NCBI GenBank assembly: GCA_949358305.1
Contig: OX442314.1
Location: 1-64,000 of the forward strand
DNA from: Strigamia acuminata
Taxonomy: Eukaryota
Reading direction: 5' to 3'
DNA: 64,000 bases
Notes under the pieces: model-generated
Told to the model about the DNA's origin: nothing
Databases searched by the model: none
The model's input: only the letters and a program-made list of their open reading frames with translations
Translations under genes and position numbers: made by a program
Shown: piece after piece, positions 6,001-25,404 of the stretch
Layout: each line of letters starts with the position of its first letter
How positions within the stretch are numbered: the first letter of the stretch is position 1

Positions 6001-7850
6001 CCTAACCTAACCTAACCTAACCTAACCTAACCTAACCTAACCTAACCTAACCTAACCTAACCTAACCTAACCTAACCTAACCTAACCTAACCTAACCTAA
6101 CCTAACCTAACCTAACCTAACCTAACCTAACCTAACCTAACCTAACCTAACCTAACCTAACCTAACCTAACCTAACCTAACCTAACCTAACCTAACCTAA
6201 CCTAACCTAACCTAACCTAACCTAACCTAACCTAACCTAACCTAACCTAACCTAACCTAACCTAACCTAACCTAACCTAACCTAACCTAACCTAACCTAA
6301 CCTAACCTAACCTAACCTAACCTAACCTAACCTAACCTAACCTAACCTAACCTAACCTAACCTAACCTAACCTAACCTAACCTAACCTAACCTAACCTAA
6401 CCTAACCTAACCTAACCTAACCTAACCTAACCTAACCTAACCTAACCTAACCTAACCTAACCTAACCTAACCTAACCTAACCTAACCTAACCTAACCTAA
6501 CCTAACCTAACCTAACCTAACCTAACCTAACCTAACCTAACCTAACCTAACCTAACCTAACCTAACCTAACCTAACCTAACCTAACCTAACCTAACCTAA
6601 CCTAACCTAACCTAACCTAACCTAACCTAACCTAACCTAACCTAACCTAACCTAACCTAACCTAACCTAACCTAACCTAACCTAACCTAACCTAACCTAA
6701 CCTAACCTAACCTAACCTAACCTAACCTAACCTAACCTAACCTAACCTAACCTAACCTAACCTAACCTAACCTAACCTAACCTAACCTAACCTAACCTAA
6801 CCTAACCTAACCTAACCTAACCTAACCTAACCTAACCTAACCTAACCTAACCTAACCTAACCTAACCTAACCTAACCTAACCTAACCTAACCTAACCTAA
6901 CCTAACCTAACCTAACCTAACCTAACCTAACCTAACCTAACCTAACCTAACCTAACCTAACCTAACCTAACCTAACCTAACCTAACCTAACCTAACCTAA
7001 CCTAACCTAACCTAACCTAACCTAACCTAACCTAACCTAACCTAACCTAACCTAACCTAACCTAACCTAACCTAACCTAACCTAACCTAACCTAACCTAA
7101 CCTAACCTAACCTAACCTAACCTAACCTAACCTAACCTAACCTAACCTAACCTAACCTAACCTAACCTAACCTAACCTAACCTAACCTAACCTAACCTAA
7201 CCTAACCTAACCTAACCTAACCTAACCTAACCTAACCTAACCTAACCTAACCTAACCTAACCTAACCTAACCTAACCTAACCTAACCTAACCTAACCTAA
7301 CCTAACCTAACCTAACCTAACCTAACCTAACCTAACCTAACCTAACCTAACCTAACCTAACCTAACCTAACCTAACCTAACCTAACCTAACCTAACCTAA
7401 CCTAACCTAACCTAACCTAACCTAACCTAACCTAACCTAACCTAACCTAACCTAACCTAACCTAACCTAACCTAACCTAACCTAACCTAACCTAACCTAA
7501 CCTAACCTAACCTAACCTAACCTAACCTAACCTAACCTAACCTAACCTAACCTAACCTAACCTAACCTAACCTAACCTAACCTAACCTAACCTAACCTAA
7601 CCTAACCTAACCTAACCTAACCTAACCTAACCTAACCTAACCTAACCTAACCTAACCTAACCTAACCTAACCTAACCTAACCTAACCTAACCTAACCTAA
7701 CCTAACCTAACCTAACCTAACCTAACCTAACCTAACCTAACCTAACCTAACCTAACCTAACCTAACCTAACCTAACCTAACCTAACCTAACCTAACCTAA
7801 CCTAACCTAACCTAACCTAACCTAACCTAACCTAACCTAACCTAACCTAA
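1..7850 (+). repeat. Telomeric array (CCTAA)n, i.e. TTAGG on the minus strand; left chromosome end
   Basis: CCTAA pentamers with no visible variant from base 1 to 7850 (1570 units), C-rich strand 5'. The array ends abruptly at ctaatgctaac. TTAGG is the ancestral arthropod telomere motif. Confidence 0.99.
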
Positions 7851-9097
7851 CTAATGCTAACTTTGGAGCTAACAAATAATTGGCCATTTTAGATCCGGTC
7901 CTAACAACAGATCCACAGTACTGTTCTTCTTTGCTAACATTTCTTTGGTGATCTAATGAATCACACCACCATTTGCTAACAGAACTAAAGGTTGCTGGCC
8001 ATCACCTGTGGAGAGAAACAGTTACAATGAACAGTCATTAGAACAGTTTCTTACGTGCAAGCCAAAATAGACACAGCAGACAGGCATTAGATCTGTTTGG
8101 CAAATTCCAAAAATGGGTGCTCTTCAGGGAAAGACACAAAGATAAGTTTAGTCCCGCCCCCCCCCCAAAAAAAATGCCCATAAAATGCAGCATTAGGTGC
8201 CATAAATATGTCTGTGGATATGGTATTGCAATTTGGAAAACAAACAAAACGATTTGGCCAACTATTATTCCCTCATGTAACAAACAAAAACACAGACAAT
8301 AAACACAACAACACTGTTTCAACTTTCCAAGAAGATGCCGCTCATGACATATTACAAAAATTTAAGAAAGCAACAGAAGGAGGAGAAGAAGAAGATGGAA
8401 GAGGAGGAAGTTGCCAAAAAGGTTGCTGTGCCAACATTACTAGCTGCATCCAAAAATTAAAATATTTGTGTTTTTACAATTTTAGTTTAAGTGTGTTTTA
8501 AGTTTAAATTTTGAGTGTGAGAATTTTAACTCTATTTTACATCATTGATCACCTGATATGTAATCAATTCCAAAATGTAGCATATAATACTCTCCAAGTG
8601 ATAGAAAGAAGTACGCATTGTTGGGATGTTATTATTTGCAGTTGGATTTAAAATTTCTATGCCTTGCTGGCAGAAGTGAGGTAGAAAATTTAAAAAAGTA
8701 TGACCAACTGGCACCAGAGGTCATTTCCAGCATCAATTCCAAGATGAAGTGATTGGACAAGAAAGAAGAAATTAATTAATAAAGCATCTAAATAATATTT
8801 GTTATCAATCTTAGTTAGGAAAACACCAAATTTTATGGTTTGAATAAGAATTGTGTAACTACTTAAAAACATGGACACAGGTGAGCTACCTGTTTTCATG
8901 AAAGGTCTTCAGAAATTGAAATTCAAAATTTTTGTATTTATGTTTTATGAGTGTGTAGTACAAAAATTAAAAATATAACAGGAAGTGATGTGATAGGTTG
9001 TGAAGTGATGTCATGTAACTACAGATAAAATTTAAATTTGTGAGTGCTGGAATTTTCATAAAACTTTGTTTGAAATAAAATGTGAATATAATTACAG

Positions 9098-9787
9098 AAA
9101 CCAAAATACACTGTTGAGTTCAGTACAGTGCAGCTGAACAGTAACATAAAGGGACGCCAGAGATTGCACCAAACCTTACAGGAATTCGCCTTCATTCTGC
9201 TGAAACCAGAGAAAAGACATTACAGGGAAGAGGTAGCTGAATTGGACCAAGAGGAAGAACAAGAAAAGGCAGAAGAATTTGTCCAAAAGGAGGAGCAAGA
9301 AAGACAAAAGGACAAACCAGTGGTACTAATTTTCCACAAGTTCTCCACAACTTCTCTACAAGAACATGCATTTCTTTTTTCAAAAACAGAAAGAATTATA
9401 CTTCAAACTTCGGAAGAAGGACGAAGAAGATGAGGAAGAGGTGGGTGGAAAAGTGTGTTTGGATTAAACACAGGCATTCCTATTCAATATCTGTAAACGA
9501 AATTTCAGGATGATATGTACCACGAGGAGGAAATCCTCCACATCCTGGAGGGGGATAAGGAAGGCTTGTCGCCGTCGTCCCTTGGCTCGTCGCCGTCGCC
9601 CCTTGGCTCGTCGCCTCTTTTATCTCCTGATCTGGAAGCGCTGGTTTTTCAGCCACCATTTTCATCTCCATCCATTCCGCTGGTGGAGTGGTGGGATGCC
9701 CGGCTCGCTGAGCTGGACGAGCAATTCCCGTTGGCATCATCTCCACCACCGGCCTCACCGACATCCAGCTCAGAGGGCGTATTTTGA
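9098..9787 (+). CDS. 3' exons of a spliced orphan gene (acidic, then Ser/Pro-rich protein): join(9098..9322, 9390..9440, 9509..9787); 5' end unresolved
   Basis: Two phase-0 GT-AG introns of 67 nt (9323-9389) and 68 nt (9441-9508) join KPKYTVEF...KDKPV | KELYFKLRKKDEEDEEE | DDMYHEEEILHILEG...SSEGVF* in one frame. Acceptors are aattacag, aaaacag and tttcag. No family recognised. Confidence 0.55.
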
Positions 9788-10637
9788 TAAGACGGAGGAT
9801 TACCGACAGCCGAACGTGCCATATCACCTTTTGGGTTTGAGTCAAGTTTGAAGTGTTTGATTGTTTGTCGTCATATCGTTCGCGTGATTTATTTATTGCA
9901 CACTTCAGGATATGTGCGAAAAGCGTGCTAATGTTTAATAGACCGATATTGTGATCAACTGATTGTGAATGTTATCCACTTGCTTGTATCGTTTATTCAT
10001 ATTAGCACGTGTCGTCTGCTCGAAAGAGCTTGTGTTGTTTTACATTTTCCATTATGCTATCAATTATATTTGCCGGTGCTTTTTTCTTTTGTAAAGGATA
10101 AATTAAGGTAATAAACCATTGATTTATCCTATGGTTATATTCGAGTGCAATTCAGCCTCGAAACATGTTTCATTTCGCTTATGTTCAGTTATTAAAACAT
10201 GGCAGGCGCATGTCGGTATCCCGCACCAGTTTAATTGCCTTATTAACTTTATTTCGGGTCATGAGAAGCCGGGATAAACTCTTTTTTACCTCCTCCCACA
10301 CCACCAAACTGAGAAGAAAAGAAGAAATATTTGAAATGTAAAAAAAGTATTTTATCTTGAGTGTACATTTAACAGTCAGATGGCTCTGTTACAGGTTGGA
10401 TGTATTTTTGTTACTAGATGGCACTTCTCTCTGTAATGCAAAAAGAAAAGAAAATATCTGAACCCCCAAACATAACGTAGAGGTTTAAAAACACCTGAAC
10501 TTTAATTAGAAGAAAAGACAGAAAATATAAAAAAATAAAAAAAAAACCCTCCAATATTTCACATTCCCAAAATAGCCTTTCCTACCAAACAATCATATGT
10601 CAAAACAACACTCCTAAGCAAGAAAAGAGGGAGAAGA

Positions 10638-10661
10638 GCAATAAATCCTAGCTGCCAATGA
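10638..10661 (+). promoter_or_regulatory. Repeated promoter-like motif GCAATAAA-N8-GCCAATGA (CCAAT box), copy 1
   Basis: Same motif and spacing at 17412-17435 and 18231-18254. Followed by a short candidate exon ending AAAG|GTAAGA (donor at 10773). Confidence 0.5.
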
Positions 10662-10741
10662 GCTGCTAGCACTAGTCACTAGAGCTAATAAACCCTCAGA
10701 TGAACACCAAACACCAACTACCCAACACCATAGACCTTCTC

Positions 10742-13700
10742 ATGGCTGCTTATGTGGAAACACACCTAAAAGGTAAGACAAGCTGTGTAGGAACAGATAA
10801 ATGAGTGAAATCAGTGTCAATAATTAGTAGCAAGCTGCGGTGTGAACCAGCACGACCAGGGTCCTTTAAATGTTTTTCAAATCTGTTGGTGCAATTTTTG
10901 TGTCCAAAAAAAAAAAAAAAAATGGATCAGCATTAAGTGGTTAAACAGCACCTGTTTTCACTCGTAAATGTATTTTCCTTTCACATATTTCATACCAACA
11001 AACAGGGTAAAAAATTAGTACATTTCACAGCCATTTTAAAAGTGGAAACGGAAAGGATAAATTTGATATTAAAAAAAAGTGACCAAGTACAAGAAAAAAT
11101 TTAAATGGAAGTATTAATTAATTATTCCCCCACCAAATAGTAAAAGGCATGGTTGGTTGTATGTGTTTCCCACCAAACCTAACAAATATGTGTTCACACC
11201 TAAGCCTGCAGCAATACCCAAACAGCTGCCTATCTGTCAGAACAAAATTAGTGTTTTCTTTCTCTCTGGTGTCAACTACATGGAAGAATGACACCACGAC
11301 TAGGATCTTTTAAATGTTTTGCAAATAAGTAAACATTAAATCTGTTGGTTTAATTTTTGTGTGGACAAAAAAGAAAAAGAAAGTGCTATCTGTCTGTCTG
11401 CTTCGGCGGTTCTCTGTGTGGAGAGTGTTTTGGGTGTGTTTCTTCTTGGAAAATGAATATTTTTTTTTCTTCCCTTTATTATGTATTCAGCCGAATAACC
11501 TCACCACAGGGGCCCAAAAAAATTGTTTTGTTTACCCAGCAGGAAACGAAAATCTGTCCGACGCCACATCAAATGAAAACACTGTGACAAAACAAACAGA
11601 CAAAGACAAAAACAGCAGCAAAAAGCTACCAGGTCGAAAAAAAAGAAATGGGAGTATTAATTAATTAAGAAAAGGGCTGAAATGTGTATTAGCCGCCAAC
11701 AATAGACAAGGGAGTTTGGAACCAAACAAACATGTGTCCATATCACAATACCCTGCTTATGTGTCAGGACAGAATTAGTGTTTTCTTTCTCCAACCTGGT
11801 GTCAACTACATGAAAGAATGAATAAATGTTTTTCAAATAAGTAAGGTGCACGCAGAAGTATAGAATAATTAGTTTTGGGGAATTATTTCTTTTGGCGTTT
11901 CTTCTGGAATCCAACCATTTTTTAAATAAATGTATTTTGACATTAGAATTCATTTTCAATAAATGGGATTAGAAGTTTTGGAGAAAAAAAAATTTGGTAC
12001 TTATTTAACATAAAAATGGGGGTGACTTAAGCATAGAATATTTTAGGTTTGATGCAAAAAAAGGATAAAATTAATATCACACAACATGCCTTTGTTTGAT
12101 TATGCCATCAATTTTCGGCCATTTTGTTTTGAAGCAATCCCTTGTGCAAAACTTGTAACCATTGTAGAAATCGCTGAAATATGGCAATTGAAGACACTAA
12201 TCAGACAAAGGCATGTTATGTGATATTAATTTCATTCATTTTTCATTTTTCACCTAACCTAAAATATTCTATACTTATGTAAAAACACTGCTAATTTTAT
12301 AGTCTGTCTTGACTAAATATTAAAACTGTAATGGAGCATGCAAAATAACGTGACCGTTGGTGCTGCTGAGATTTACATAACTGACTAGTTTATTCAAAGA
12401 TAGGTGGCGCTGTAGTAGCAGCGTCACAATATATAACAATGGTCAAGACTGACCAATGGAGTGCGAGACACTCCAGTATCCCCTCAATTGTGGAATGGGG
12501 GAAGGAACAATTTAGAACAGTGAAATCAATTGATCTACAAGGATGCAATGTAATTAAAGTTGGTTTAAAAACAATCAATTGAACAATGAATTAAAAGGTA
12601 ACATGCATTGGAGTGAAGACACTCCATCATCCCCTCAATTGTGAACCAACTAGGGGAGCAATTAGTAAATTCAAAGTAACAGTTTGACATGAAATGCAAA
12701 TTTAAATTGAACAATAAAATACTTGGATTTTAAAACTACTGAATTATGCACGAAATGAAACTTGTAAAATTGAACATAACATGAATTTTGATTCCAACAA
12801 TGAATGAAATTAAACAGTGAAATGCTAACATGATAAATGAACAATAGTTGAGTGAACTAGCTTGATGAATTAGCAGCTAGACGGGAGACGGAAAGGAAGT
12901 CGGAATGACTCTCTCCTCCCCTCACAAGAAGCCAACAGAGAGCTAATTGTGACCCGTGCCCAACGCATGCGGTAGCGTTTTGATGGGCGAAAAGTGCGGC
13001 TAGACCAACGATGGTCCGTGACATCACCTGCGATGCACACGCCGGCACAATGGTTTGACGACTGCGGCTGGTCCCGAAACAAACACTGGGAGTTGTAGAA
13101 GCTACCCAAATGGCGTCTGCGGTTGTGACCAGTGATTTTCTGCGCTGGGGCAACCGTGGTCGAACGTGCATAGATGTCGGAGACTGCACATGTGGCGAGC
13201 TTCATCCGAATGGCTGACTGGTGAGCCTGAGCAAACTTCATTTCATACTGACTGATGATGGTTTGCTGAATGGCTGACTGGTGAGCCTGAGCGAACTTCA
13301 TTTCAGACTGACTGATGATGGTTTGCTGAATGTAGACACAACTCAACCCGTGGAGTTGATCAGAATAGTTGCAGTGCTCCGAACGCAGCTGCAACGAAAT
13401 GGCGAAATTTGCAACGGATTCCACCTGTCCCTGCACTCGGGTGTTGAAATTTCGACCGCGAGGAGGGGTTTTGAGTGCTGTTAATTGGCCTTCAACGCGG
13501 CGAGGGCAGCGAACGTCATCTGCACAAGCTTCATTGGAAAACAGGACAGCCAGACGTGTGTACGGCAGCCCGCCGACGAGGCACAGCAAAACAACCACTT
13601 TCTTCGTGTCATAGGTGATGTCACTGCACACGAAAAAGCAGTCCAACTGGTCAATGTAGTGGGTCCAGTTATTCTTGATGCAATATGGTTGCAGTGAACC

Positions 13701-16700
13701 GATACTTGAAGCGATCACAGAAGTTTTGCATGGAAAAAGCTTACATGAAAGTAGGCCTAACGGCATGGTCACGGCGTGGTCAAGGCGTGGTCACGGCATG
13801 GTCAAAGGTCCGAAACAGCACTTTACACTAATTTTAAGCGATTTTGTACATTACAGTTTGTGAGGTATTAATTGTTGATCCGTTTTGCATGATGATTTTC
13901 TTGAGAACACCGGAACAATTTGAAACAGGGTTAAACCTAACGTGTGGTCCGCGTGGTCAGCGTGGTCAGCAAAAGTTCGAAAAAGTCGCTATTTTTGCAC
14001 GAAAAAGTTCACAATAAAGAATGTGGATTCTTGTATTACCATCTCGTCGCCAATTAGTCTGTCTTGACTAAATATTAAAACTGTAATGGAGCATGCAAAA
14101 TAACGTGACCGTTGGTGCTGCTGAGATTTACATAACTGACTAGTTTATTCAAACACAGGTGGCGCTGCGCAAAGGTAGCGTCACAAATCAACAGGAAATG
14201 ACAATTACAGAATGGAGTACAGACACTCCATTTTATTTTCTTACAAACCTTACATTTCTGAGCGTAAAAAACCATGTTTTAAAGTGCAAACGGTCAAAAA
14301 TGAATTTTTAAGGCCCAACTAAACCATTTCTTAACATAAACAAACAGTCCGAAATGCAAATATTCATTATTTTAAGTCACTAATCAGACAAAGGCATGTT
14401 TTGTGATATTAATTTTATCCATCTTTTTTGCATCAAACCTAAAATATTCTATATTTATGTCAGCCCCATTTTTGTGTAAAATCACTGTCAAATTTATTTC
14501 CCCACAAAACTGTTAATTTGAAATGAATACTAAAGCCTAAATACATATATTAAAAAATTGGTTTCATTCCAGATGAAGCGCAAAAAGAAATATTTTTAAA
14601 AAACTGATTATTCTATACTTATGGCGCGCCTACAAAAAAAAAAAAAAAAAAGTGCTATTTTTTGGTCTGTCTGTCTGTGAGGAGTGTCTAAAGTTTGTTT
14701 TTTCCTGGAAAATAAATATTTGTTTTTTTTTCCGGGCAGAATACGCTTCTCATTCCTCACCGTCAAGACCTTCACCCAGTGGAGAAGAAGGAGACACAAC
14801 AAACGAACAACTGATTGGCCAGCTGCAGGGTAAAACAAGTTACTAACCTATACTAATACTAACCTCACCATGGGGCCCCAAAAAAAATTGTTTTGCACAC
14901 CCAGCAGGAAATTTGTCCCATGCCACATCAAACGAAGACAACGCGCCGAAACAAACAGACAAAGACAAAAACCCGAGCAGAAAACAGGATCAAAGCGACT
15001 GCAACGACACTGACGACAGCATGAGTGAAAGCGGCAGTCAGTATGAAGCGCCAGACTTGCCAACGGAAATGATTAAGTTCCTGGACCACAGGCAAAATCG
15101 CACGGCCATTGAAAATTTTCAAAAGTGGCTGAGCAATCCGGCCGGACATAACAAGGGTGCCCGGACAACTCGTCAACACGTCCAGCAGACGCAGCGTTTC
15201 ATCGGATCCCTGTGCGGCAAAAAATCAATGCTTCAAGGGGCCGAGGCCTGGTTCGTACGCTCACGCAAAAAGTATGCGCCAGGGACCGTGCTGAGCCAAG
15301 TCTCGTCGATACGCCTTTATTTTAATTTTATGAAGTTTGCCCAAGTGTCGGGCTGGGAAGAAAACCAGGCCTGGGATTTGGCTTTGTCTCTCGACTACAT
15401 GGTCTCCGTGTGGTTGAGAAACATCAAAAAAGACACCAATCGGCGCATAAAAGAGGTGGCGCAACGGGACTCGCTCCGCGCCCCCACACCCGACACAATG
15501 AGGCAGTTTTTTGCTTCGGAGCACGTCAAGGGAATCCACAGATCGCTCGACGGCCCACGAATGCGAAAGGATGAGTGGGACGGCAAAATGGCCACGCACG
15601 TCAGAGACGTCCTGGTGTCCGAGCTGTTGATGTTAAATGGCGCGCGGCAAGGTAACGCCACACAGATGACTCTGGGCGAGTGGAATCGCCGCCAAAAGGT
15701 AGACGGACAGGCTGTAATTACAGTCCATGAGGTGAAAAACATTGCCATCATAGGTGGCGCTGAAGTTGTGGCGGCTGATCGACTCGAAAAGCGGATTTCC
15801 GCATACGTCACCAACTTTCGCCGTCCCTGTTTCACCTCACGGTCCCTGGCTCGAGACGAAACAATGCCGCTGTTTGTTTCAGCACAGGGCAAGAAGATGT
15901 CGCGCACGACCGCGGCCAGCTGCGTGGGCAACGCATGGCAACGCGCCGGCCTTAGGCGCGTGACGGCCACAATTGTGCGCAAGGGAATCGTCTCCGAGGT
16001 GCACTCGGGCCACCACGACCTAGCGCCGGACCTAGCCCAATTAATGGGCCACACTTTGGCCACGGCGGAACGACACTATCGTGTGGCCGGGTCCGCAAAG
16101 AAGGCCGTGAGGACTGTCACGAGGATCGCTGACATAATGGGGACGGAGGGTGCAGTGGACGACAACGACTCAGGTAGCAGACATTACATCCAACAAACAC
16201 AAACAAACATTAACACTTCAACCTTTTTTCCAGATACAAGCGACAGCCAATTGGAAGAGAGGGGAGAAAGCGACGTGCCGTTGCAGCCTTCCGTGCAGAA
16301 TGCCACAGAAGTTCTCACCACCAGTCCCATGCCAACTGCAGCAAACAATCAGATGCCTCATGTGCCAACAGTGAATCCAGCATCCACAACAGGCCAACTG
16401 CAGTGCATCCCCCAGGAAACAGACCAACTGCAGTGCATCTCTCAGGAAACAGGTCAGGCTGGTATGTGTCTGATTACAACGCCTTGATGCTACCTTCACT
16501 CATTTGCTTGTTTGTGTCAGGTCCCTCAACTGTGCAAACAGCCACCATCCCAGGCTTTCCCGAAGGGATGGACTGGACCAGCGTGTTGGCGGCATCACTC
16601 CATGATCCCCGTCCACCGTTGCCAGCGGTTCAAAGGAGACAACGAAGAGTACCGGACACACCTTCAGATCCGCAGCCAAAGATTGGTCCACGCGAATCAT

Positions 16701-16882
16701 TCACACCTCCTCATCGAAAAATCATTCAAAAACACCTACACCGTTTTAGAGGCCGTGATGGGAATGTGGCCACAGACTTACTACGAGAAGCACTAAACAC
16801 AATTCCCGAGTTAGCAGAAATAAAGAGGCGTTACACACTCCAGCAGATTCGGGACAAGGCCAGAAGTTTCATCCGAGTGTAA
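10742..16882 (+). CDS. Full spliced model of the YR gene: join(10742..10772, [11543..11632], 14740..14829, 14908..16173, 16234..16461, 16521..16882)
   Basis: All predicted introns are GT-AG and phase 1 and keep the frame: MAAYVETHLK-G|gtaaga; two symmetric 90-nt exons; intron 14830-14907 with TACTAAC branch-like motifs and a NAGNAG acceptor; a 60-nt in-frame intron 16174-16233; a 59-nt intron 16462-16520. The 5' exons are the least certain (weak gtcgaa donor at 11633). Confidence 0.5.
12300..14230 (-). mobile_element. Gag-only, pol-less Ty3/Gypsy (Mag-like) LTR retrotransposon
   Basis: Two 176-bp LTRs (12300-12475, 14055-14230) start TGGAGTGTCT on the minus strand. 5-bp TSD TTTTA at 12295-12299 and 14231-14235. 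PBS TGGCGACGAG lies just inside the 5' LTR (14043-14052, minus). PPT-like GAGGGGA next to the 3' LTR. AATAAA within the LTR. Internal gag remnant. Confidence 0.85.
13030..13720 (-). pseudogene. gag: Degenerate Gypsy/Mag-type gag
   Basis: IGSLQPY..NNWTHYIDQLDCFF..SDI...KKVVVLLCLVGG, FNTRVQGQVESVANFAISLQLRSEHCNY and IQQTIISQSEMKFAQA resemble Mag gag motifs. Between them the gag-like segment (PMKLVQMTFAAL..LK..*..KPLLAVE) is in another frame with a stop. There is a 60-bp internal tandem duplication (~13208-13332) and a decayed Cys-knuckle region. Confidence 0.8.
14913..16487 (+). CDS. Tyrosine recombinase / integrase (Crypton-like or viral-integrase-like YR), main coding exon(s)
   Basis: Open 524-codon GC-rich frame. 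Candidate catalytic residues in canonical order: NGA-R245 (15645), K275 (HEVKN), TIV-R356-K (HxxR position), LMG-H380 and H-Y389 (LAQLMGHTLATAERHY). An upstream helical core-binding-like region (YAPGTVLSQVSSIRLYFNF) is present. Confidence 0.9.
   Translation: MSHATSNEDNAPKQTDKDKNPSRKQDQSDCNDTDDSMSESGSQYEAPDLPTEMIKFLDHRQNRTAIENFQKWLSNPAGHNKGARTTRQHVQQTQRFIGSLCGKKSMLQGAEAWFVRSRKKYAPGTVLSQVSSIRLYFNFMKFAQVSGWEENQAWDLALSLDYMVSVWLRNIKKDTNRRIKEVAQRDSLRAPTPDTMRQFFASEHVKGIHRSLDGPRMRKDEWDGKMATHVRDVLVSELLMLNGARQGNATQMTLGEWNRRQKVDGQAVITVHEVKNIAIIGGAEVVAADRLEKRISAYVTNFRRPCFTSRSLARDETMPLFVSAQGKKMSRTTAASCVGNAWQRAGLRRVTATIVRKGIVSEVHSGHHDLAPDLAQLMGHTLATAERHYRVAGSAKKAVRTVTRIADIMGTEGAVDDNDSGSRHYIQQTQTNINTSTFFPDTSDSQLEERGESDVPLQPSVQNATEVLTTSPMPTAANNQMPHVPTVNPASTTGQLQCIPQETDQLQCISQETGQAGMCLITTP
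16521..16882 (+). CDS. Terminal YR exon encoding a Pro-rich linker and a ~65-aa Myb/SANT-like helical domain
   Basis: Donor G|gtatgt (16462) and acceptor ttgtttgtgtcag (16520) splice in frame to GPSTVQ...RESFTPPHRKIIQKHL...YTLQQIRDKARSFIRV*. The domain has a paralog at ~19160-19368. Confidence 0.75.
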
Positions 16883-17059
16883 ATGTGTTTCCACTCGTTT
16901 TCACACAACATTCACACGAATTAATTCGTGTAAACGTCGTGTGAACTGGTAAAACGTTAAATTGGTTAAATGACCGTTCAACAAGTTTTCTCGTTAAAAA
17001 TCGGGTCTTGCTAGCAGCCATCTTGGATATTAATAATAAAAATAACTTAAATGAATTTT

Positions 17060-18060
17060 CTCTTTTAATCATATTTTTGTAATCTCCTGTTTCTTTTTCC
17101 CGAGTAAACAACAGGAATATTGACTGTGGTTATTGTTTGGATTAATTTATTTAAACTGGAATTTACACTGAAATTTACCCAGGCCTTACGAATTAACAAA
17201 AACCACACTTATATTTTCACCAACACTTATAAAAAAAAGGCCAAAATTGATACGTGCATGCAACATTTATATAAACACATACATGTAACGTTTATATAAA
17301 CACATAAACCGCCATTTTTCAAATACTACAAAAATCAGTAGTCAAACTCCCAGTTTACTTTGAAAAAAGAAAAAGCAGAAAATATTGATAAAATTTCTCC
17401 CTCCAATAACAGCAATAAACCCTAAAAGCCAATGACAACTAGGTGCACACGAAAAGTCATTTCCACTAAATGACCAGTGCGAATGGTAGTGTAAATATCC
17501 AACTTACGAGTTAAAAAAAAAATTCCAGTGTAATTTTCAGTGTAAATCCAAGTAATGGTTATTATTGGGACCAATTAATTTTGCCATTTAATCACATTTT
17601 TTCTAATCGTACGAGTAACGTTTATATAAAAACATAAACCGCCAAACAAATTTACATTTTATAATTATGTTTTTGTAATCTCCTGTTTTTTTTTTAGTGA
17701 ACAACAGCAATAATGACTATGGTTATTATTTGGACTTTTCCCGCTTGAATTCACACTTTTTTTTCAACTCGAAAGTTGGGTCATTTAACTTGTCATTTAC
17801 AACTAGGTGCACACGAAAAGTCATATGCACTAAATGACCAGTGCAACTGGTAGTGTAAACATTCAATTTACAAGTTTTTTAAAAAAAGAAACAGTGTAAA
17901 TTGCAGTGTTAATCCAAGTGTAAATTAATTGGTGCCAATAATAACCATTCGATCGCACAAATACGGTTAATAACTGACTGTTGTTACGATCGAAATCGCA
18001 ACGTTTATATAAATACGTACATGTAATCTTTATGTAAAAACATAAACCGCCATTAACCCC
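17060..18060. repeat. Patchwork of diverged direct and inverted repeats (MITE-like remnants)
   Basis: aactaggtgcacacgaaaagtcat at ~17437 and ~17801; ~17071-17140 resembles ~17665-17735; tttacactgaaatt is inverted relative to cagtgtaaa motifs; acgtttatataaa...cataaaccgcca recurs three times. Confidence 0.55.
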
Positions 18061-18230
18061 CCCTCAAAAAAAGGCGATTTATGTTTTTTTTTCTGTTATA
18101 CGGAAAATATGCATTTATATTCAATTTCGGCTTTTTACGAAAGAATAATATCCCAGCCAAAAATATTGATTGATAAATTACAGAAACCCCCCTTTAACCC
18201 AGACCAATAAGATTTGCAAGAGGGGACACA

Positions 18231-18254
18231 GCAATAAAACCAAAAAGCCAATGA
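18231..18254 (+). promoter_or_regulatory. GCAATAAA-N8-GCCAATGA motif, copy upstream of the stand-alone Myb-like gene
   Basis: Spacing identical to the copies at 10638 and 17412. Followed by CCAAAG|GTAAGA donor at 18334. Confidence 0.5.
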
Positions 18255-18900
18255 GACAGCTGGTCAAGATAACCAAATCTTCATAGCTCCACAGAAGTCT
18301 ACCTTGAACCCACCTCAGCTAGCTGTCCCAAAGGTAAGAATCAGAAACAAACCTATTAATATGTTGCAAGAGGCCTTTTTATCAATTAATAGAATGAAAT
18401 AATTAATAGAATGAAAAAATTAATAGAATGAAAAAATTAATCATTATTATTAATAATAATTAATAATAATAAAAATTAATAAAATTAATAATAATTACTA
18501 TTAAAATAATTAATAGAAAGAAATAATAACATAAAAGGATAATTGTATAATTATAATTATTTCTGCTGAATTCCAAATAAATAAACTCAAAAACCCAGGT
18601 CCAGTGTTTAAAAGGTCAAACATGGGTTTTCTTCAAATCTAACCAATATGTGTCAAAATTCAACCCCTCCAGCACTTTGGAAGAAACTACAACTTACGTG
18701 TCTAACCTACCAGTCATTAGTCAAATTAGTTGTGAATGACACAAAAGATGCCTTTATGCACACAACATTAGCCTTTGAGATGAAAACACACAGCAATGGC
18801 TAATAACTAGAAGGATCAGTCATTTCCTTTTCTCTCCTTAATTCCTTGTTTAATTGATTAACTAACAGAAGAGATTAAACTAAACAAATTGTTATTTCAG

Positions 18901-19368
18901 GAAGACATTATGGAACAAATGAGTTCCACCTGCACCGTACCAGCAAAACTTATCGACCTGACTGATGAACTGATTGAACTGATGTTCCTAACCAACATGG
19001 ACGAAACCCCGCATTCACCAACCCCGCCTCCACCATTCCCATGGCCCATGTCACCAACACCATCTCCTCCGTCCACACCCACGCCACCGACAGCACCATC
19101 CCCACCGCCCACGCCACCGACACCACCATCACCGCCAACGTGTCCGTCCTGGCAGAAAAAGCGACGAAGGGGATCATTCACCCCTGAGGATCGAGCCGTC
19201 ATTGCGCGCCACCTCAAGTTGTTAACCGACAGACGAGGACGGCCCCGTTCGGCTCGATTGCGTTGGGCTCTTGAAAATTGCGTGGGCCTCAAACATCTAC
19301 CATCTGTGTACACCTTTGGGCAGATACGTGATCGTGTTGCTGCATTCACGAGAAAACCGAACGTGTGA
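18901..19368 (+). CDS. Pro-rich protein ending in the same Myb/SANT-like domain as the YR C-terminus (terminal exon; ATG at 18910)
   Basis: Acceptor ttgttatttcag at 18900. PxxP-rich linker, basic KKRRR, then SFTPEDRAVIARHL...LRWALE...YTFGQIRDRVAAF, colinear with YR SFTPPHRKIIQKHL...LREALN...YTLQQIRDKARSF. Confidence 0.8.
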   Translation, partial: EDIMEQMSSTCTVPAKLIDLTDELIELMFLTNMDETPHSPTPPPPFPWPMSPTPSPPSTPTPPTAPSPPPTPPTPPSPPTCPSWQKKRRRGSFTPEDRAVIARHLKLLTDRRGRPRSARLRWALENCVGLKHLPSVYTFGQIRDRVAAFTRKPNV

Positions 19369-20077
19369 CCTGTGCGAGAGAAAAAAGAAAAAGAAATAAG
19401 AAAAAGAAATTTAAAGAAAGAAATAGAAAAATGAAATAAAATTGTAAACAGAATAAAAAAAAAAATCAAACAAAATAAAATAAAAAAGCCAACATCAATT
19501 ATCATTATTATTATTATCAAAAACACATAAAAAAATGACCAAAACACATTAAAAAACAACAAAAATCATCTAATTAGATTCCAATATAAAGCGCATGAAG
19601 CAGGAAGCAGCCTCTAAAACAATCTCTTAGCAACAGGTACTTTGGATTCTATAGTAAACAACCCAAATACTGAAAGGAAAAGTAAATGAGTTAAGTGTGT
19701 TTTACATTTAAAGATACAGAAAAATATATTATATATAGTATATTAGAAGCATGAAAGAAAATTTAACAATCTAAATATAAAAATATGAAAATAATGAAAA
19801 TTATTTAAAAAAGGCTTCATGATCTAATGATCGAAGGGATTGACCATTTCGGCGTGCATATAAACTAATGGAGAAAAAAGGTCTAATGTCCGCAGCAGGC
19901 AGCTGTTTTTGTCGCCAACACACCTTTCATTGGATGGCGTGATCCATTAGCTCTCGTCATTCATTAGCTTAGTGGACTAATGGTCGTATTTAATCGCTAT
20001 TTCGGCGTGCGAATGAGCTCGGTGAATTGCTATTCCGGCGTGCAAACGAGCCTGGTTTGCCATTACTTCACCATCGT

Positions 20078-21130
20078 TAATCGATCCACCGAGCTCATTC
20101 GCACGCCGAAATAGCAACCCAAAACGATTATTAGTTCTGCAGGCACTTTTCATTGGTTTTGCGGTATACTGTTGGTGTGATTCATTAAGTTGGTGGTCTA
20201 ATCGATCCACCGAGCACATTCGCACGCCGAAAAAGCAACCCAAAACGATTATTAGTTCTGCAGGCACTTTTCATTGGTTTTGCGGTATACTGTTGGTGTG
20301 ATTCATTAAGTTGGTGGTCTAATCGATCCACCGAGCTCATTCGCACGCCGAAATAGCAACCCAAAACGATTATTAGTTCTGCAGGCACTTTTCATTGGTT
20401 TTGCGGTATACTGTTGGTGTGATTCATTAAGTTGGTGGTCTAATCGATCCACCGAGCTCATTCGCACGCCGAAATAGCAACCCAAAACGATTATTAGTTC
20501 TGCAGGCACTTTTCATTGGTTTTGCGGTATACTGTTGGTGTGATTCATTAAGTTGGTGGTCTAATCGATCCACCGAGCTCATTCGCACGCCGAAATAGCA
20601 ACCCAAAACGATTATTAGTTCTGCAGGCACTTTTCATTGGTTTTGCGGTATACTGTTGGTGTGATTCATTAAGTTGGTGGTCTAATCGATCCACCGAGCT
20701 CATTCGCACGCCGAAATAGCAACCCAAAACGATTATTAGTTCTGCAGGCACTTTTCATTGGTTTTGCGGTATACTGTTGGTGTGATTCATTAAGTTGGTG
20801 GTCTAATCGATCCACCGAGCTCATTCGCACGCCGAAATAGCAACCCAAAACGATTATTAGTTCTGCAGGCACTTTTCATTGGTTTTGCGGTATACTGTTG
20901 GTGTGATTCATTAAGTTGGTGGTCTAATCGATCCACCGAGCTCATTCGCACGCCGAAATAGCAACCCAAAACGATTATTAGTTCTGCAGGCACTTTTCAT
21001 TGGTTTTGCGGTATACTGTTGGTGCGATTCATTAAGTTGGTGGTCTAATCGATCCACCGAGCTCATTCGCACGCCGAAATAGCAACCCAAAACGATTATT
21101 AGTTCTGCAGGCACTTTTCATTGGTTTTGC
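20078..21130. repeat. 121-bp tandem array, about 8.7 near-identical copies
   Basis: Units start TAATCGATCCACCGAG at 20078, 20199, 20320, 20441, 20562, 20683, 20804, 20925 and 21046. Only a few substitutions seen. An inverted copy of the core lies at 19996-20024. Confidence 0.97.
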
Positions 21131-22273
21131 TGTATAATGGGAATTATTCCCAAAGAAATTTCCTACAAATCTCTGTCTGACAGTTTCATTAGAAGCAAAA
21201 CTAGTGTGTTTTGAAATGCTTTTTTCATTTGATTTTGTGCCAATTTCATAATAATAATAATAAAATGTCATTTTAAAACACATTTCTTCCTTAAATTCCC
21301 ACAAAAACAAACGAAAATTGCATTTTTAATCACAATTTGCCGATAAATTGTGTTAAAATCAATATTTTAACACAATTTTTGCACTAAATCGCATCTACAA
21401 TTGACACAAACACATCCAAAATTGACAAAATTGACAAAAAGAATAAAAGAAAAACGGGTGACTGCACCAAACATCATCCAAAATAAATCACCCAAAAAAA
21501 CCTGCTTACCTTGATGTCCTGCATGGCCTTAGTGCAGACCACGACTGTCCGCAGCCAAAAACACCTAGAAAAACAAAAGAAAAATAAGAAAATTGCCGAA
21601 ATACACGCAATTTCCCAACGTTCATAAAATAATTAATTTAAAAACCTTTCTGTACCCACTCCAGCCCTGGCAAAAATTCTTACATATTAATCTATCACTC
21701 CTCAGAACCATATGGAACCAAGAGCGAGGTCTGAGGGCCGCTTAAGACGAAAAACACCTGAAAAACAGAGAAAGGAAATTAAAAATGGTGCAAAAATCGT
21801 GCAAAAATCATACAAAAAAGCATTAATGCAAAATGCAAATAAAATTCGAATTATTAAACAAACCTACCTTGCCTGAATAAAAAAAAACAAAAAAAAAAAA
21901 AAACAACCACTGGCTACTGATTTCGCGGCGATAGCCGCGATATCGATAAAACAAAAGAAAAACAAAAACAAAAGAAATGCATTAAACAAACTTTAAACCA
22001 AACCAACCTTCCTTAATTCACACTCACCTTACTGTAAATATGGGGCACTCACAGGCCTAGGAGGACAAGAACCTAGAATGATAAGAAAAAAACACAAAGA
22101 ACCGATTCCTTGTCAAAAAAATAAAGAAAAAGAAAAAGAAATACTTATCGTTCACTAGAGCCTTCAACTCTGAAGACGTATCCACCCGCCATTCCTACCT
22201 ATAAAAACAACAAAAAAATAAGCCACTATCATTAAAAATTAAACAAAAAAGCCACTTCAAACATGAAATGCCA

Positions 22274-22333
<60 letters not shown>

Positions 22334-22334
22334 C
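22274..22334. repeat. (CCTG)n microsatellite
   Basis: About 15 perfect CCTG units. Confidence 0.95.
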
Positions 22335-23124
22335 TGAAAAAGAATTAGTAACTTAAAAATTATTATAAAAATTGTTTTATTTTAAAACAAATTAGGTTAA
22401 ACACATTAAGCTTTGCCTGTGGTTCCGTTGACGAGCCGGGAAATCCTTAAGAAACCCGAAAGACCGAATCGTTTAATTCGTTTACTCGCCACTAGATGTC
22501 AGACAAATAAGAATCCAAACATAATTTCCGAAACACACTGTTGAAAATTGGCAACAATTTCAATCATGTTGTGAATTGATTTTGTGAAAAGAAATATATT
22601 AATAAAATATTAACATCCTTGAATGTTGATTAGTAACTGTGTCTGCTTGCAGTAGAAATGTCATGGTCACTTTATCACGAATATCAATATTTACTCCACA
22701 TTTTCAAAAGCACTGTCAACACTCGGTGGCATGCAGCAAAAAAACACAAAGTTTATTGATTGTACATTGTCAAAAGCACTGCCTCCACTCGGTTGGTGGA
22801 TCTATAGTGAAATACAATTCAGACTTGATCATTAGTTCGTGCAGTGTGCTAGATATAGGTGAATCTGAAAGCTAAATACATGACTGAGTCTGACATCTGA
22901 CCTCAGATAAAAGTTCCCAGATAACTCACAATGTCACAATTGTCAACAACGTGTATCTGCAATGCTTCTGAAATTGCTGTACAGTACAGCCGCCAGAAAA
23001 AGGTCATGCATGCACCCGGAAAACGTGATTATTTGGCGAGATCATTTAAATCCCAAGTTGTCACATAAAAACAAATAAAAACTGCAACGATATATCACCG
23101 TGCGAATTAGTCAACAATAAATTG

Positions 23125-23276
23125 TCAATAACTGCTCCATCCAGGGGATGCATACATGTGTTCTTGGGGACAGACGTGACATCCAAATTGATTTGATGAA
23201 TCTTAATAAGTCCCTGATGGGCACTGACTGCACTGGTTTTTATCCAAATCAAAAAACTTTCCTGCAGAACAAGACA
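23125..23276 (-). pseudogene. Pseudo-exon encoding an Ephrin_rec_like (GCC2/GCC3) Cys-rich repeat of SVEP1/SCUBE/uninflatable type
   Basis: After acceptor ttttggcag the frame reads VSCSAGKFFDLDKNQCSQCPSGTY*DSSNQFGCHVCPQEHMYASPGWSSY*, matching C.xG.(F/Y)...C..CP.GTYQD...Q..C..CP. The usual Q position is TAA (23203-23205). Confidence 0.75.
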
Positions 23277-23913
23277 CTGCCAAAACAATTTTAATTGATA
23301 AAATTAATAAAAAAAATAAATAATCAATTAATTCAAAGGTACAGTTTTATGAAATTTCAATTGGGAAAGTGTATTCACTATTCAGCGCAACAAAATCAGA
23401 GGTGACTGTTGACTGCAATTAGCGCACCAACTTGTTGAATAATAATATTTGTCCAGTTGCACGATTCAAGGCACGATTCTGAGAAGAACGCAACCACAAA
23501 CGTGATTTGCACCTTAATTGAATTGCGTCAGATTTTGCCACGCTTTCTATAGTTTCCAGATAGAGAAAAAAATTACCTACCGCATTTTCCATGCAAATAT
23601 ATCTGTCCATCAGGGCATACTGTATCATTAGATGATGGAAAATGAAACGAAAATGAATAAAAACTGAAAAAAATAGATGAAAAATGAAAAAAAACGTCAA
23701 AAACAAATTTTAAAAAAAAGCAATTTACCTTCTACAATGTCCTGTGTGGCTATACCGCAGTCGGGGGTCGTCCACGGGCCTTTGGTCGGTCAAAGATGCC
23801 TGGAAAATAAAAGAAAAATGAATAAAGACATCAAAAATTAAAAGAAAAAAAAAAACCGAAAACAAAAACGTCCAAATCAAATTTCAAAATATTCCGTTCA
23901 TCATCTACGATGT

Positions 23914-24130
23914 CCCGCCCCCTCTCCCTCCCCCTCCCCGCCCCGCCCCCTCGCCCCCTCTCTCCCCTCCCCGCCCCCCCTCTCCCCCCTCCCCTCTCCC
24001 CGCCCCCCCTCTCCCCCCTCCCCGCCCCCCCTCTCCCCCCTCCCCTCCCCGCCCCCTCTCCCCCCCTCCCCTCCCCGCCCCCTCTCCCCCCCCTCCCCTC
24101 CCCGCCCCCTCTCCCCCCTCCCCCTCCCCG
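23914..24130 (-). repeat. C-rich low-complexity tract (G-rich on the minus strand, G-quadruplex-prone)
   Basis: About 215 bp of CCCCTCTCCCC / CCCCGCCCC runs. Confidence 0.9.
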
Positions 24131-24212
24131 CCAATGGCGGTGGCAATGTTGGGGCCCGTCTTGGTTGTTCTGGCCCATGTTGAACCAGCAAAAAAAAGCT
24201 GTCTTGGAAACA

Positions 24213-24340
24213 GAAATAATGAGGAAATAATGAGGAAATAATGAGGAAATAATGAGGAAATAATGAGAAAATGCCTACCCAAAGCCAAGAAATACCGTCT
24301 TGGAAACAGAAATGAGGAAATAATGAGGAAATAATAAGGG
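24213..24340. repeat. 11-bp minisatellite (AATAATGAGGA)n in two clusters, each preceded by gtcttggaaacaga
   Basis: About 5 copies at 24213-24270 and about 2-3 at 24310-24340. Confidence 0.85.
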
Positions 24341-24629
24341 AAGGCTTTCCAAAATTGCCGTCCTGAAAACAGAAATAAATGCCTTTCCAAAGGAAATGCC
24401 TTCTTGTCCAGTTGGGCGGAATCCAGAAACAACCAAAAAGCTGTGCTTTGCCTGCAAAAATGTTAACCCTACTAAAAAAACAAATCCAGTTGGCCCGGAA
24501 ACGCTCTTCCGCAACCAACCAGCAGCGAGCAGCGGATTTGCCGCCTGTCATTTGCCCATCTCTCACCCCCAAATCCGCCGACTATATTATAAATATTAAA
24601 TGCATCCTCGGATTTGGGGACGCGCCTGG

Positions 24630-24920
24630 GTTGGCTGTGGAGCGGTTGAGTCCGGTCTAAATCTGTTCTCCATGCACGCCATTGGCTGAAAAACAGATCT
24701 AGACCGGACTTAACCGCTCCATAGCCAATGGCGTGCATGGAGAACAGATTTAGACCGGACTCAACCGCTCTATAGCCAATCCGGGCCCAGGAACCGGATT
24801 TGCATGGATCGGTCGTGTTCGGTCTGGATTTGCTCTTCAGCCAACGACGTGCATGGAGGGCAGATCCAGAGCGAACACGACCGCTCCATAGCCAATCCGG
24901 GCCCAGAAACCGGATTTTCG
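24630..24920. promoter_or_regulatory. CpG-rich palindromic region with multiple CCAAT boxes
   Basis: Perfect 48-bp inverted repeat 24640-24687 / 24723-24770. A second imperfect IR at ~24806-24839 / ~24854-24888. ATAGCCAAT at ~24721, ~24772 and ~24888, plus ATTGGCT at ~24681. Confidence 0.55.
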
Positions 24921-25404
24921 CGTGCAATTTTGGTCTGGGATAAACGGCATCAGGGGGCGTGCGTGTTGCTTGTAATTTTCCCAAAGAGGGCGCCACTTAC
25001 GATGGTAATGGCGCCCATGTGTTGGGGAAAATTTATTACCGTTGTTTGCACCTGGCCCAGAACACATGCATGGACAGGAGTGAATAAATGAAAAAGCATC
25101 CAAGGTTTTTGATTCTCCCCCAGAAATTGTAATAATTTGGGTCCGCCCAATGTTTGGATGCACCCAGGCGTGTATGTGTACGTGGACACAGTGTAATAAA
25201 TATGCATTTGCTTTTTGAATATTTCATATTTTTTAAATTTTATTTCCACCAAATTAAATGGCGCTTAAAAACAATTAATGGATAATGTAACAATTTTTTT
25301 TATTCATCATGTTTTAAATTTTGACGTTACAAATGACATCCTGTAAAGTCTGTTCTGGCTATTACATAATGCTTGATGTCCCAAACCATAAATTTCTCTT
25401 TTTC

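Follow-up and report, generated by a model that had tools for sequence, protein, structure and literature searches.

A duplicated, predicted helical domain and a tyrosine recombinase in a telomere-capped subtelomeric block of Strigamia acuminata

Results

Genes and repeats at the left end of contig OX442314.1

We analysed the first 64,000 nucleotides of contig OX442314.1 (assembly GCA_949358305.1), hereafter called the window. It starts with a telomeric array, followed by a subtelomeric block carrying a tyrosine recombinase frame and two copies of a small domain, and by a compound satellite (Table 1). Copy 1 of the domain forms the C-terminal end of frame 16214-16882 and copy 2 that of frame 18862-19368, and both domain genes lie 7-11.5 kb from the telomere. 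TAACC/GGTTA is the arthropod telomere motif (PMC10871703), and the telomeric setting suspected in a preliminary description of this DNA was borne out by the (CCTAA)n array at the start of the window and by a sequencing contig which enters these repeats.

Table 1. Positions of genes, candidate introns and repeats in the window.
Feature	Position	Strand	Details
Telomere array (CCTAA)n	1..7851	.	1570 perfect copies, 7.85 kb; C-strand on +; left chromosome end
Subtelomeric block carrying both genes, likely multi-copy and near-identical	7852..25400	.	Based on contig depth
Telomere junction of the deep block	7852..8000	+	Five CTAAC words, at 7857, 7869, 7901, 7934 and 7976
Tyrosine recombinase frame	14847..16487	+	546 aa stop to stop; core approximately 15081-16142; true 5' exons undefined
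Candidate in-frame 60-nt intron of the recombinase gene	16174..16233	+	Acceptor rank 2/249, donor rank 11/230; GC 0.35 vs 0.54-0.56 in the flanks
Candidate 59-nt intron	16462..16520	+	CTG/GTATGT ... TGTCAG/G; both sites phase 1
Last exon, Pro-rich linker and domain copy 1	16521..16882	+	Copy 1 at 16691-16879; AATAAA at 17035
Perfect 18-bp palindrome	16914..16931	.	Just past the stop codon, within an imperfect 46-bp palindrome (16900-16945)
Candidate upstream exon of the second gene	18203..18333	+	Best donor of the region at 18334; 131-nt form without open frame
Second gene, 152 aa	18901..19368	+	Acceptor 18900, ATG 18910; copy 2 at 19168-19365; AATAAA at 19435-19474
121-bp unit, 8.8 tandem copies	20078..21136	.	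Decayed inverted arm at 19976-20027
34-bp inverted repeat	21345..21378	.	Perfect 15-bp arms, 4-nt centre; readable as 13-8-13
Compound satellite	25400..64000	.	9-, 22- and ~62-bp units; runs to the window end; without telomere repeats

The two domains are an old duplication conserved as protein

BLASTP aligned copies 1 and 2 with 24/62 identities and no gaps (E 1e-8), and a tblastn search of the whole 64-kb window returned the same pairing (E 2e-8) with the next-best match at E 1.7 or worse, so there is no third domain copy in the window. The alignment score of 96 was not equalled by any of 5000 shuffles (mean 22.6, maximum 46), which confirms the ungapped colinearity described previously; the duplication is genuine. 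DNA identity per codon position was 28, 33 and 18, each out of 63, different codons lie behind 15 of the 24 identical residues, and synonymous sites are saturated (pS 0.78 vs pN 0.50), backing the earlier view that the protein pattern is under selection despite DNA divergence. The 300 nt on each side of the copies aligned at the level of shuffled sequences, and these unrelated flanks, together with the synonymous saturation, indicate that the duplication is old and has been kept as protein. A Pro-rich linker was indeed found ahead of each domain (12/56 and 26/54 residues are Pro), with different linker sequences.

A single-sequence structure model of low confidence (pLDDT 60.7, pTM 0.36) predicted three helices (residues 12-25, 35-44 and 56-67), in line with the three-helix domain proposed before, and the domain is net basic, with 15 K/R versus 7 and 5 D/E. 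A Myb-like DNA-binding role is plausible for both domains, an assignment based on the Myb sequence pattern and on this low-confidence model, and a Phe stands at the first position of the Myb Trp triad. The telobox-like reading failed on sequence: against the telobox in helix 3 (VDLKDKWRT, consensus VxxKDxxR; PMC6175992), copy 1 (QQIRDKARS) matches at 3/9 positions and copy 2 (GQIRDRVAA) at 1/9, the consensus is found in neither copy, and the evenly spaced Trp triad is absent, with no Trp in copy 1 and one unshared Trp in copy 2, so we rejected a telobox (TRF-type) Myb label. The telobox Myb domains of TRF1/TRF2 and the plant TRFL/SMH proteins are small C-terminal three-helix domains with a basic last helix, a layout also predicted here, and copy 1 shares D-K-x-R with them, but VxxKDxxR and the three Trp are not kept here, the final Arg is lost in copy 2, and there is no TRFH domain (PMC6175992, PMC4924339).

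Searches of Pfam, NCBIfam, PHROGs and PDB sequences did not match the domains to Myb, SANT or MADF. Foldseek with the weak domain model returned nothing at E<=0.001 and placed the TRF2 Myb domain and RTBP1 at ranks 37-38 (both E 6.4, TM 0.24 and 0.36) amid unrelated helical proteins; the best Z of a VIA fold search of the same weak model was 4.1, and 2.5 on second look. Both blanks are compatible with a Myb fold. The 16 candidates of the homologue search with copy 1 included none at E<=10, and phmmer with copy 2 over 1.84 billion representatives found two repeat proteins, one of them a Tetrahymena surface antigen, both dismissed as chance hits.

A tyrosine recombinase probably spliced to copy 1, and a probable small second gene

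The recombinase frame matched the XerD profile TIGR02225 at E 1.9e-6 (27.5 bits against a cut-off of 329.6) over residues 238-396. Another four profiles of the Xer type matched at E 0.002-0.03, and PF00589 at E 0.0064. This backs the tyrosine recombinase described upstream of copy 1; all profile scores are far below the family cut-offs, so the assignment is to the tyrosine recombinase superfamily only. Besides the profile match to the catalytic domain, the frame contains the R-K-HxxR-H/W-Y residues of the superfamily, with R267, K297, R378, H402 and Y411 as the candidates and Thr replacing the His of HxxR; their roles, including the K assignment and the motif order, are assigned by general tyrosine recombinase motifs. 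Homologue searches yielded 7992 candidates for the 538-aa recombinase frame, none at E<=0.001, and 2405 for the 200-aa core against longer proteins, none at E<=0.1, while the structure model of the recombinase was unusable (pLDDT 37). There was no match to viral contigs in three scans and none to phage records, and scans of metagenomes and of prokaryotes each turned up a single weak locus (25% over 102 aa and 18 aa, respectively), which we disregarded.

As the recombinase frame stops at 16487, fusion to copy 1 requires the intron 16462-16520. The frame-restoring intron suggested previously is plausible: in our own approximate scoring matrix its donor ranks 2/230 and its acceptor 4/249, and their phases match. 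It gains credibility from these top-ranked sites, from the matching phase and from the other candidate intron of the recombinase gene, which is also short and low in GC. An alternative donor at 16453 would likewise preserve the frame at the copy 1 junction. Copy 1 is therefore likely to be spliced onto the recombinase, judged from these sites. Copy 2 is likely to form a small separate protein, predicted to consist of an acidic N-terminal stretch, the Pro-rich linker, a basic KKRRR and the domain; calling it stand-alone presupposes that translation begins at ATG 18910 or within short exons further upstream, and a 39-nt form of the candidate upstream exon, from 18295, would be in frame with the second gene. 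Of the preliminary description of a fused and a stand-alone copy, the similarity of the two domains is an observation, whereas both adjectives are interpretations of gene structure. In the ESM Atlas the second gene gave two unnamed clusters of eukaryotic proteins, one at 0.81 with mostly Mollusca and one at 0.77 with mostly Chordata, which are below the 0.9 mark and a lead only. Modelling the recombinase core and the second protein as a complex gave no answer (score 0.00).

A telomere-capped block, probably in many near-identical copies

In sequencing run X1, a single contig (depth 3912) reaches 25 nt into the telomere repeats, fewer letters on the telomere side than the 31-letter bridging rule requires, and X1 contained no alternative left flank of the block. 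Long contigs over the block showed 0-2 differences at depths of 3745-4443 (junction 3912, recombinase 4443, copy 1 4220 and copy 2 3745, with 0-1 differences each), compared to a depth of 99 for a ~88%-identical recombinase paralog, and in run X2 the depths were 13132 for the block vs 360 for the recombinase paralog. From the telomere junction to ~25 kb the block thus has ~40x the depth of the diverged paralog. Both runs belong to one study, which may have used the source sample, and the contig depths are a hint rather than a copy number. Short contigs do not establish linkage between all parts of the block in each copy. There are likely tens of near-identical copies of the block, and a telomere-capped block with both genes in such numbers is probably a jumping-gene module on many chromosome ends.

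The block has several further features. The five CTAAC words at the junction compare with a mean of 0.28, none of 2000 shuffles having as many; they may represent telomere units in decay, or else candidate sites for binding. With regard to the 34-bp inverted repeat at 21345, arms of 15 bp were reached in only 1/4403 shuffles of the block; it is a candidate recombination site or hairpin relic, and we take its 13-8-13 layout to be lox/FRT-like geometry. On the inner side of the block there are no telomere repeats in the 56 kb of the window and no mirrored telomere junction within the window; beyond the left flank, the sole further CCTAACCTAA of the window is at 12253. A low-depth insert lies near 12.4-14.0 kb within the block, and at 11496-11625 the 5' end of the recombinase recurs as a decayed duplicate. 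The Rfam scan of 7852-26500 gave no match, and thus nothing that points to rDNA. We rejected a reading of 12870-13790 on the minus strand as gypsy gag, a resemblance without a Pfam match, and a 15-mer common to the junction and the 121-bp unit was dropped, though only 63/3000 shuffles were as good, because 16/57 real block pieces share a 15-mer elsewhere.

Discussion

On balance we favour the explanation that the old duplicated pair of predicted three-helix domains, which likely bind DNA in a Myb/SANT-like manner, one likely spliced to the recombinase and one likely accessory, belongs to a Crypton-like mobile module, located in a telomere-capped block which has probably been copied across many chromosome ends. 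Splicing of 16462-16520 would give a ~640-aa enzyme whose targeting domain is attached at the C-terminus by a flexible, Pro-rich tether, and the fused domain would bind the module's own subterminal sites and position the enzyme there. The free paralog, with its NLS-like KKRRR and diverged last helix, may bind related sites and help or dampen recombination, comparable to the Myb-like partner of Harbinger elements. The high copy number would result mainly from recombination between chromosome ends homogenising the whole cap, rather than from repeated insertion into telomere repeats; such passive spread is suggested by the equal depth over the block, the low-depth insert, the decayed 5' duplicate and the absence of inner telomere repeats. 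Yeast Y' repeats and the fungal telomere-linked helicase regions are likewise subtelomeric gene blocks next to the telomere that are common to many chromosome ends; the genes there encode helicases, whereas here a recombinase and twin helical domains are found in an animal. For the module we identified neither element ends nor a target duplication or an empty site.

As in Crypton and CryptonV elements, the recombinase is the sole recognisable enzyme of a eukaryotic element (PMC3212892, PMC8869645). CryptonF has a C-terminal DNA-binding domain, GCR1_C (PMC3212892), for which neither domain nor frame had a Pfam match here, and CryptonA and CryptonI are described as having no C-terminal domain after the recombinase (PMC3212892), whereas one is present here if the putative intron 16462-16520 is spliced. 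Some CryptonV families target microsatellites (PMC8869645), and here one side of the block abuts (CCTAA)n, with no other element end found. Fungal Starships are a precedent which supports a recombinase with both a fused and a free Myb-type gene, since they combine a tyrosine recombinase with a Myb-type domain that is fused in some elements (DUF3435/MYB hybrids) and a separate MYB/SANT gene in others (PMC12256816). The Starship MYB gene is described at the opposite edge and in opposite sense (PMC12256816), whereas the free gene here follows 2 kb further downstream in the same orientation and is clearly paralogous to the fused domain, and the DUF3435 captain had no Pfam match here. Similarly, PIF/Harbinger elements combine their enzyme with an accessory Myb-like protein that binds subterminal motifs, a functional model for the free copy, but the enzyme is a DDE transposase, the Myb/SANT/MADF partner has 300-400 aa, and as described there no second copy is fused to the enzyme (PMC9710019).

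The recombinase-Myb protein could instead be an active telomere specialist, which recognises either (TTAGG)n or the junction with its CTAAC words and is itself responsible for inserting or exchanging the block at chromosome ends, with the free paralog as tether or direction setter; variants are a DNA-only telomere transposon and a host-tamed recombinase that keeps subtelomeres alike. This would agree with the single deep contig with one telomere junction and no alternative left flank in X1, with the CTAAC words in the first 149 nt of the block, with the lox-like inverted repeat, and with intact catalytic-type residues in a gene over which deep contigs differ at single bases. Recombinase-driven insertion into (TAACC)n is described for nimaviruses (PMC10871703), as is microsatellite targeting for CryptonV (PMC8869645). 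However, nimavirus insertions are flanked by telomere repeats on both sides, whereas the window has none on the inner side and no mirrored junction, the telobox motif is not found, the CTAAC words may be decayed telomere units, and a shared junction is equally expected under passive homogenisation. We therefore consider active specialisation unlikely, and the same holds for its fullest form, in which one near-identical block caps most or all chromosome ends, spread by its own Myb-guided recombinase, with the fused domain reading TTAGG-type repeats, the free paralog tethering or switching, and the 34-bp repeat as the crossover site. An intact catalytic set in a homogenised block fits active spreading too.

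Two other explanations concern the genes themselves. The absence of a fusion, with the recombinase ending at 16487 and two small separate domain proteins (copy 1 starting from ATG 16489 or 16568), would account for the stop in the recombinase frame and the in-frame ATGs in the copy 1 frame, but is improbable given the highly ranked donor and acceptor 59 nt apart, with phases matching across that stop, and given that the AATAAA at 17035 is the sole one in the 420 nt past the copy 1 stop. Copy 2 could also be an alternative last exon, in which case a single recombinase gene would encode two enzymes that differ in their DNA-reading domain. Both tails are on the same strand with the same linker-plus-domain layout and an AATAAA behind each, and an AG at 18868 is in phase 1, as the recombinase donors require; this acceptor is weak (rank 41/249), though, while the good acceptor at 18900 is phase 0, the natural partner of the strongest regional donor at 18334, and is followed by ATG 18910, which makes such swappable tails quite improbable. 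Finally, it is very improbable that the block is the end of an endogenous nimavirus-type large DNA virus integrated in telomere repeats, as the telomere junction and a recombinase gene with candidate introns, both known from nimaviruses (PMC10871703), stand against 38 kb of satellite with no gene-dense virus-like region in the 56 kb beside the telomere, a recombinase that is the sole non-repeat frame >310 aa of the window, and no zinc finger visible in that frame.

The endogenous nimavirus recombinases do resemble the present one in being linked to (TAACC/GGTTA)n in arthropods, but majaniviruses have genomes of 278-401 kb with repeats at both ends and recombinases with a C2H2 finger and a SAM-like domain (PMC10871703), whereas the window has no viral genes, telomere repeats on one side only, and no gene-dense ~300-kb genome with viral core genes; a second flank may be situated past the window. 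The word Myb does not occur in the main text of that paper. Recombinase-Myb pairings in fungal Starships and telomere-targeting recombinases in crustacean viruses are thus already known; in the open-licence literature we found no non-viral animal element in which such a domain occurs both fused and as a free paralog, in many telomere-capped copies. Should the cap owe its spread to the enzyme, this would be a new route to subtelomere homogenisation and possibly provide a repeat-specific integrase, and if the module were an active telomere specialist it would represent either a telomere transposon that is non-viral and DNA-only or a tamed recombinase keeping subtelomeres uniform. Site choice by eukaryotic tyrosine recombinases could readily be studied with the two diverged domains as a pair.

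One domain in two copies

The domain behind the tyrosine recombinase (copy 1) and that in a second gene (copy 2) are identical at 24 of 62 residues in an ungapped alignment (E 1e-8, pairwise protein comparison), a score approached by none of 5000 shuffles, and a third copy was not found anywhere in the 64-kb window. This bears out the preliminary description, which had one domain present twice in ungapped colinearity, its protein pattern kept despite DNA divergence: DNA identities by codon position are 28/63, 33/63 and 18/63. Since synonymous sites are saturated (pS 0.78, against a pN of 0.50) and the 300 nt on each side of the copies score no better than shuffles, the duplication is, as judged from these alignments, old, confined to the domain and maintained as protein.

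AlphaFold2, run on single-sequence input, predicted helices at 12-25, 35-44 and 56-67 (pLDDT 60.7, pTM 0.36), and both copies are basic; the three predicted helices and the charge would fit a Myb/SANT-like reader. The telobox label proposed for the domain fails at the sequence level. An excerpt of PMC6175992 gives the telobox as VDLKDKWRT (consensus VxxKDxxR) within a domain bearing three tryptophans, whereas copy 1 (QQIRDKARS) matches at 3/9 positions with no tryptophan and copy 2 (GQIRDRVAA) at 1/9 with one, and neither fits the label; telomere binding by the domain is nevertheless compatible with the failure of this label alone.

A probably telomere-capped block

With CCTAA array, mixed stretch and satellite in that order (see table), the window has the layout of a left chromosome end; the arthropod telomere motif is TAACC/GGTTA (PMC10871703). 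The mixed stretch, or block, carries both genes and was compared with contigs of two sequencing runs of one study (X1 and X2; library type unrecorded), which may include the source sample. In X1, long contigs reach a depth of 3912 at the telomere junction, 4443 at the recombinase, 4220 at copy 1 and 3745 at copy 2, each with 0-1 differences from the window, against 99 for a contig of an ~88%-identical recombinase paralog (15019-15839, 97 differences, 3 gaps). Four contigs per run, taken among those listed, are 38-45 times as deep as the paralog in X1 and 27-46 times in X2, from which we infer tens of block copies, contig depth being a hint and not a copy number. For single-copy animal DNA to reach depths of thousands, the runs would have to be implausibly large. 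The block thus probably exists in many copies, and these are probably capped by telomere repeats.

Features of the window
Feature	Position	Strand	Remark
Telomere array	1-7851		1570 perfect CCTAA units; window start
Mixed sequence	between telomere array and satellite		about 17.5 kb
Several small frames, acidic or Pro/Ser-rich	8270-9790 (e.g. 9098-9430, 9497-9784)	+	telomere-to-recombinase interval; no Pfam match above cut-off
Decayed duplicate (79%) of 5' part of recombinase gene (14860-14987)	11496-11625		
Long imperfect inverted repeat (80%)	11853-12102 and 14381-14623		
Direct repeat, ~113-180 bp	12300-12475 and 14055-14230		bounds 12293-14230
306-codon frame	12870-13790	-	no Pfam match
Recombinase frame	14847-16487	+	
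Candidate intron	16174-16233		in frame, GC low
Candidate intron	16462-16520		phase 1 at both ends
Domain copy 1	16691-16879		closes its frame
Domain copy 2	19168-19365		closes its frame
Inverted repeat, 34 bp	21345-21378		
Exon-like segments	23729-23799, 23577-23663, 22028-22072, 21510-21564	-	strong splice sites
C-rich tract and CCAAT-rich inverted repeats	23914-24916		
Compound satellite	about 25,400 to window end		higher-order (25400-64000): 9-bp (AGCCCTCAG), 22-bp and ~62-bp arrays; blocks about 1.2-1.5 kb; larger duplications

Over 7832-8330, the 18 X1 records include a 329-nt contig of depth 3912 that spans the junction, its 25 nt within the CCTAA array being fewer than our bridging rule of 31 letters, and none of the 18 continues from the junction into unlike sequence; the deep copies thus appear to have one telomere junction in common. 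X2 has 241 records there with 11 loose ends, two of the six listed being left-pointing single contigs (7889, 7909). The first 149 nt past the junction hold five CTAAC words (0/2000 shuffles), and the window contains neither an inner-side telomere array nor a mirrored junction. The stretch at 12.5-14.3 kb seems to be an insert absent from most copies, since depth falls to 1155-3192 in its X1 bins and 12293 is linked to 14230 by a deep contig.

With a little better than even confidence, we read the locus as a Crypton-like recombinase with a tethered Myb-like domain and a free paralog, in a cap homogenised by ordinary end-to-end recombination. The tethered domain would place the enzyme on the module's own sites, the diverged free paralog may occupy related sites and aid or damp the reaction, and recombination between ends would keep the subtelomeric cap that carries the module uniform. 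Such passive spread is favoured because depth is even across genes, spacers and repeats, the insert is polymorphic, the 5' end of the gene has a decayed duplicate and the telomere flank is one-sided. Active telomere targeting by the recombinase is unlikely on balance, although its catalytic residues are intact, only one junction is seen and a viral precedent exists.

The recombinase and the second gene

The recombinase frame matches the XerD profile (E 1.9e-6), four further Xer-type profiles more weakly and PF00589 at E 0.0064, all far below family cut-offs. R267, K297, R378, H402 and Y411 stand in what we take to be the catalytic order, Thr replacing the His of HxxR. The frame stops at 16487, and fusion to copy 1 therefore requires an intron. 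Splice sites were scored with our own approximate matrix over 14600-19400 (230 GT and 249 AG sites): donor 16462 ranks second and acceptor 16520 fourth, and excision of both candidate introns leaves a single open frame from 14847 of 638 codons plus stop. The recombinase of the preliminary description is borne out by the profile matches, and its fusion is likely, as predicted from splice sites; an enzyme ending at its own stop, separate from copy 1, is improbable.

For the stand-alone protein also proposed there, the simplest model has a gene of its own encoding 152 aa or a few more, with an acceptor at 18900 (rank 7) ahead of an ATG at 18910 and the region's top donor at 18334; the predicted product begins with an acidic stretch, continues with a linker in which 26 of 54 residues are Pro, and then has KKRRR and copy 2. 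Given a weak phase-1 acceptor at 18868 (rank 41), it is conceivable, though improbable, that copy 2 instead serves the recombinase gene as an alternative last exon.

Known systems offer partial parallels: Starships have DUF3435/MYB hybrids as well as separate MYB/SANT genes, the latter located at the opposite edge (PMC12256816), the Myb-like partner of Harbinger binds the transposase as well as subterminal motifs (PMC9710019), nimavirus recombinases are associated with insertion into (TAACC)n (PMC10871703), some CryptonV families target microsatellites (PMC8869645), and CryptonA and CryptonI are without a C-terminal domain (PMC3212892). The locus probably functions like these yet is assignable to none, and an endogenous virus, for all the nimavirus likeness, is very improbable. 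Listings of the open-access literature gave no description of a non-viral animal recombinase module that combines a fused domain with a free paralog of it and lies in a telomere cap present in many copies. Overall, the preliminary observation stands and its interpretation does in part, the telobox label apart.

Other elements of the block

At 15778 and 16728 the window departs from the deep contigs by single bases; the first changes Asp to Gly within the recombinase, the second Gln to Arg within copy 1. The low-depth paralog shows a net 3-nt length difference over 15019-15839 in both X1 and X2, and may represent another intact member of the family at a different genomic site. The minus-strand frame within the insert is reminiscent of gypsy gag but has no Pfam match, and the long inverted repeat would, in insert-free copies, form a MITE-like element immediately 5' of the recombinase gene. 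The 34-bp inverted repeat, equalled in 1/4403 shuffles, has a geometry that we take to be lox-like, and a third similar half-site directly to its left makes a three-element arrangement (21326-21378). Downstream of the C-rich tract and CCAAT-rich inverted repeats, the chain of small exon-like segments at 21510-23799 may be a spliced gene or lncRNA directed toward the telomere.
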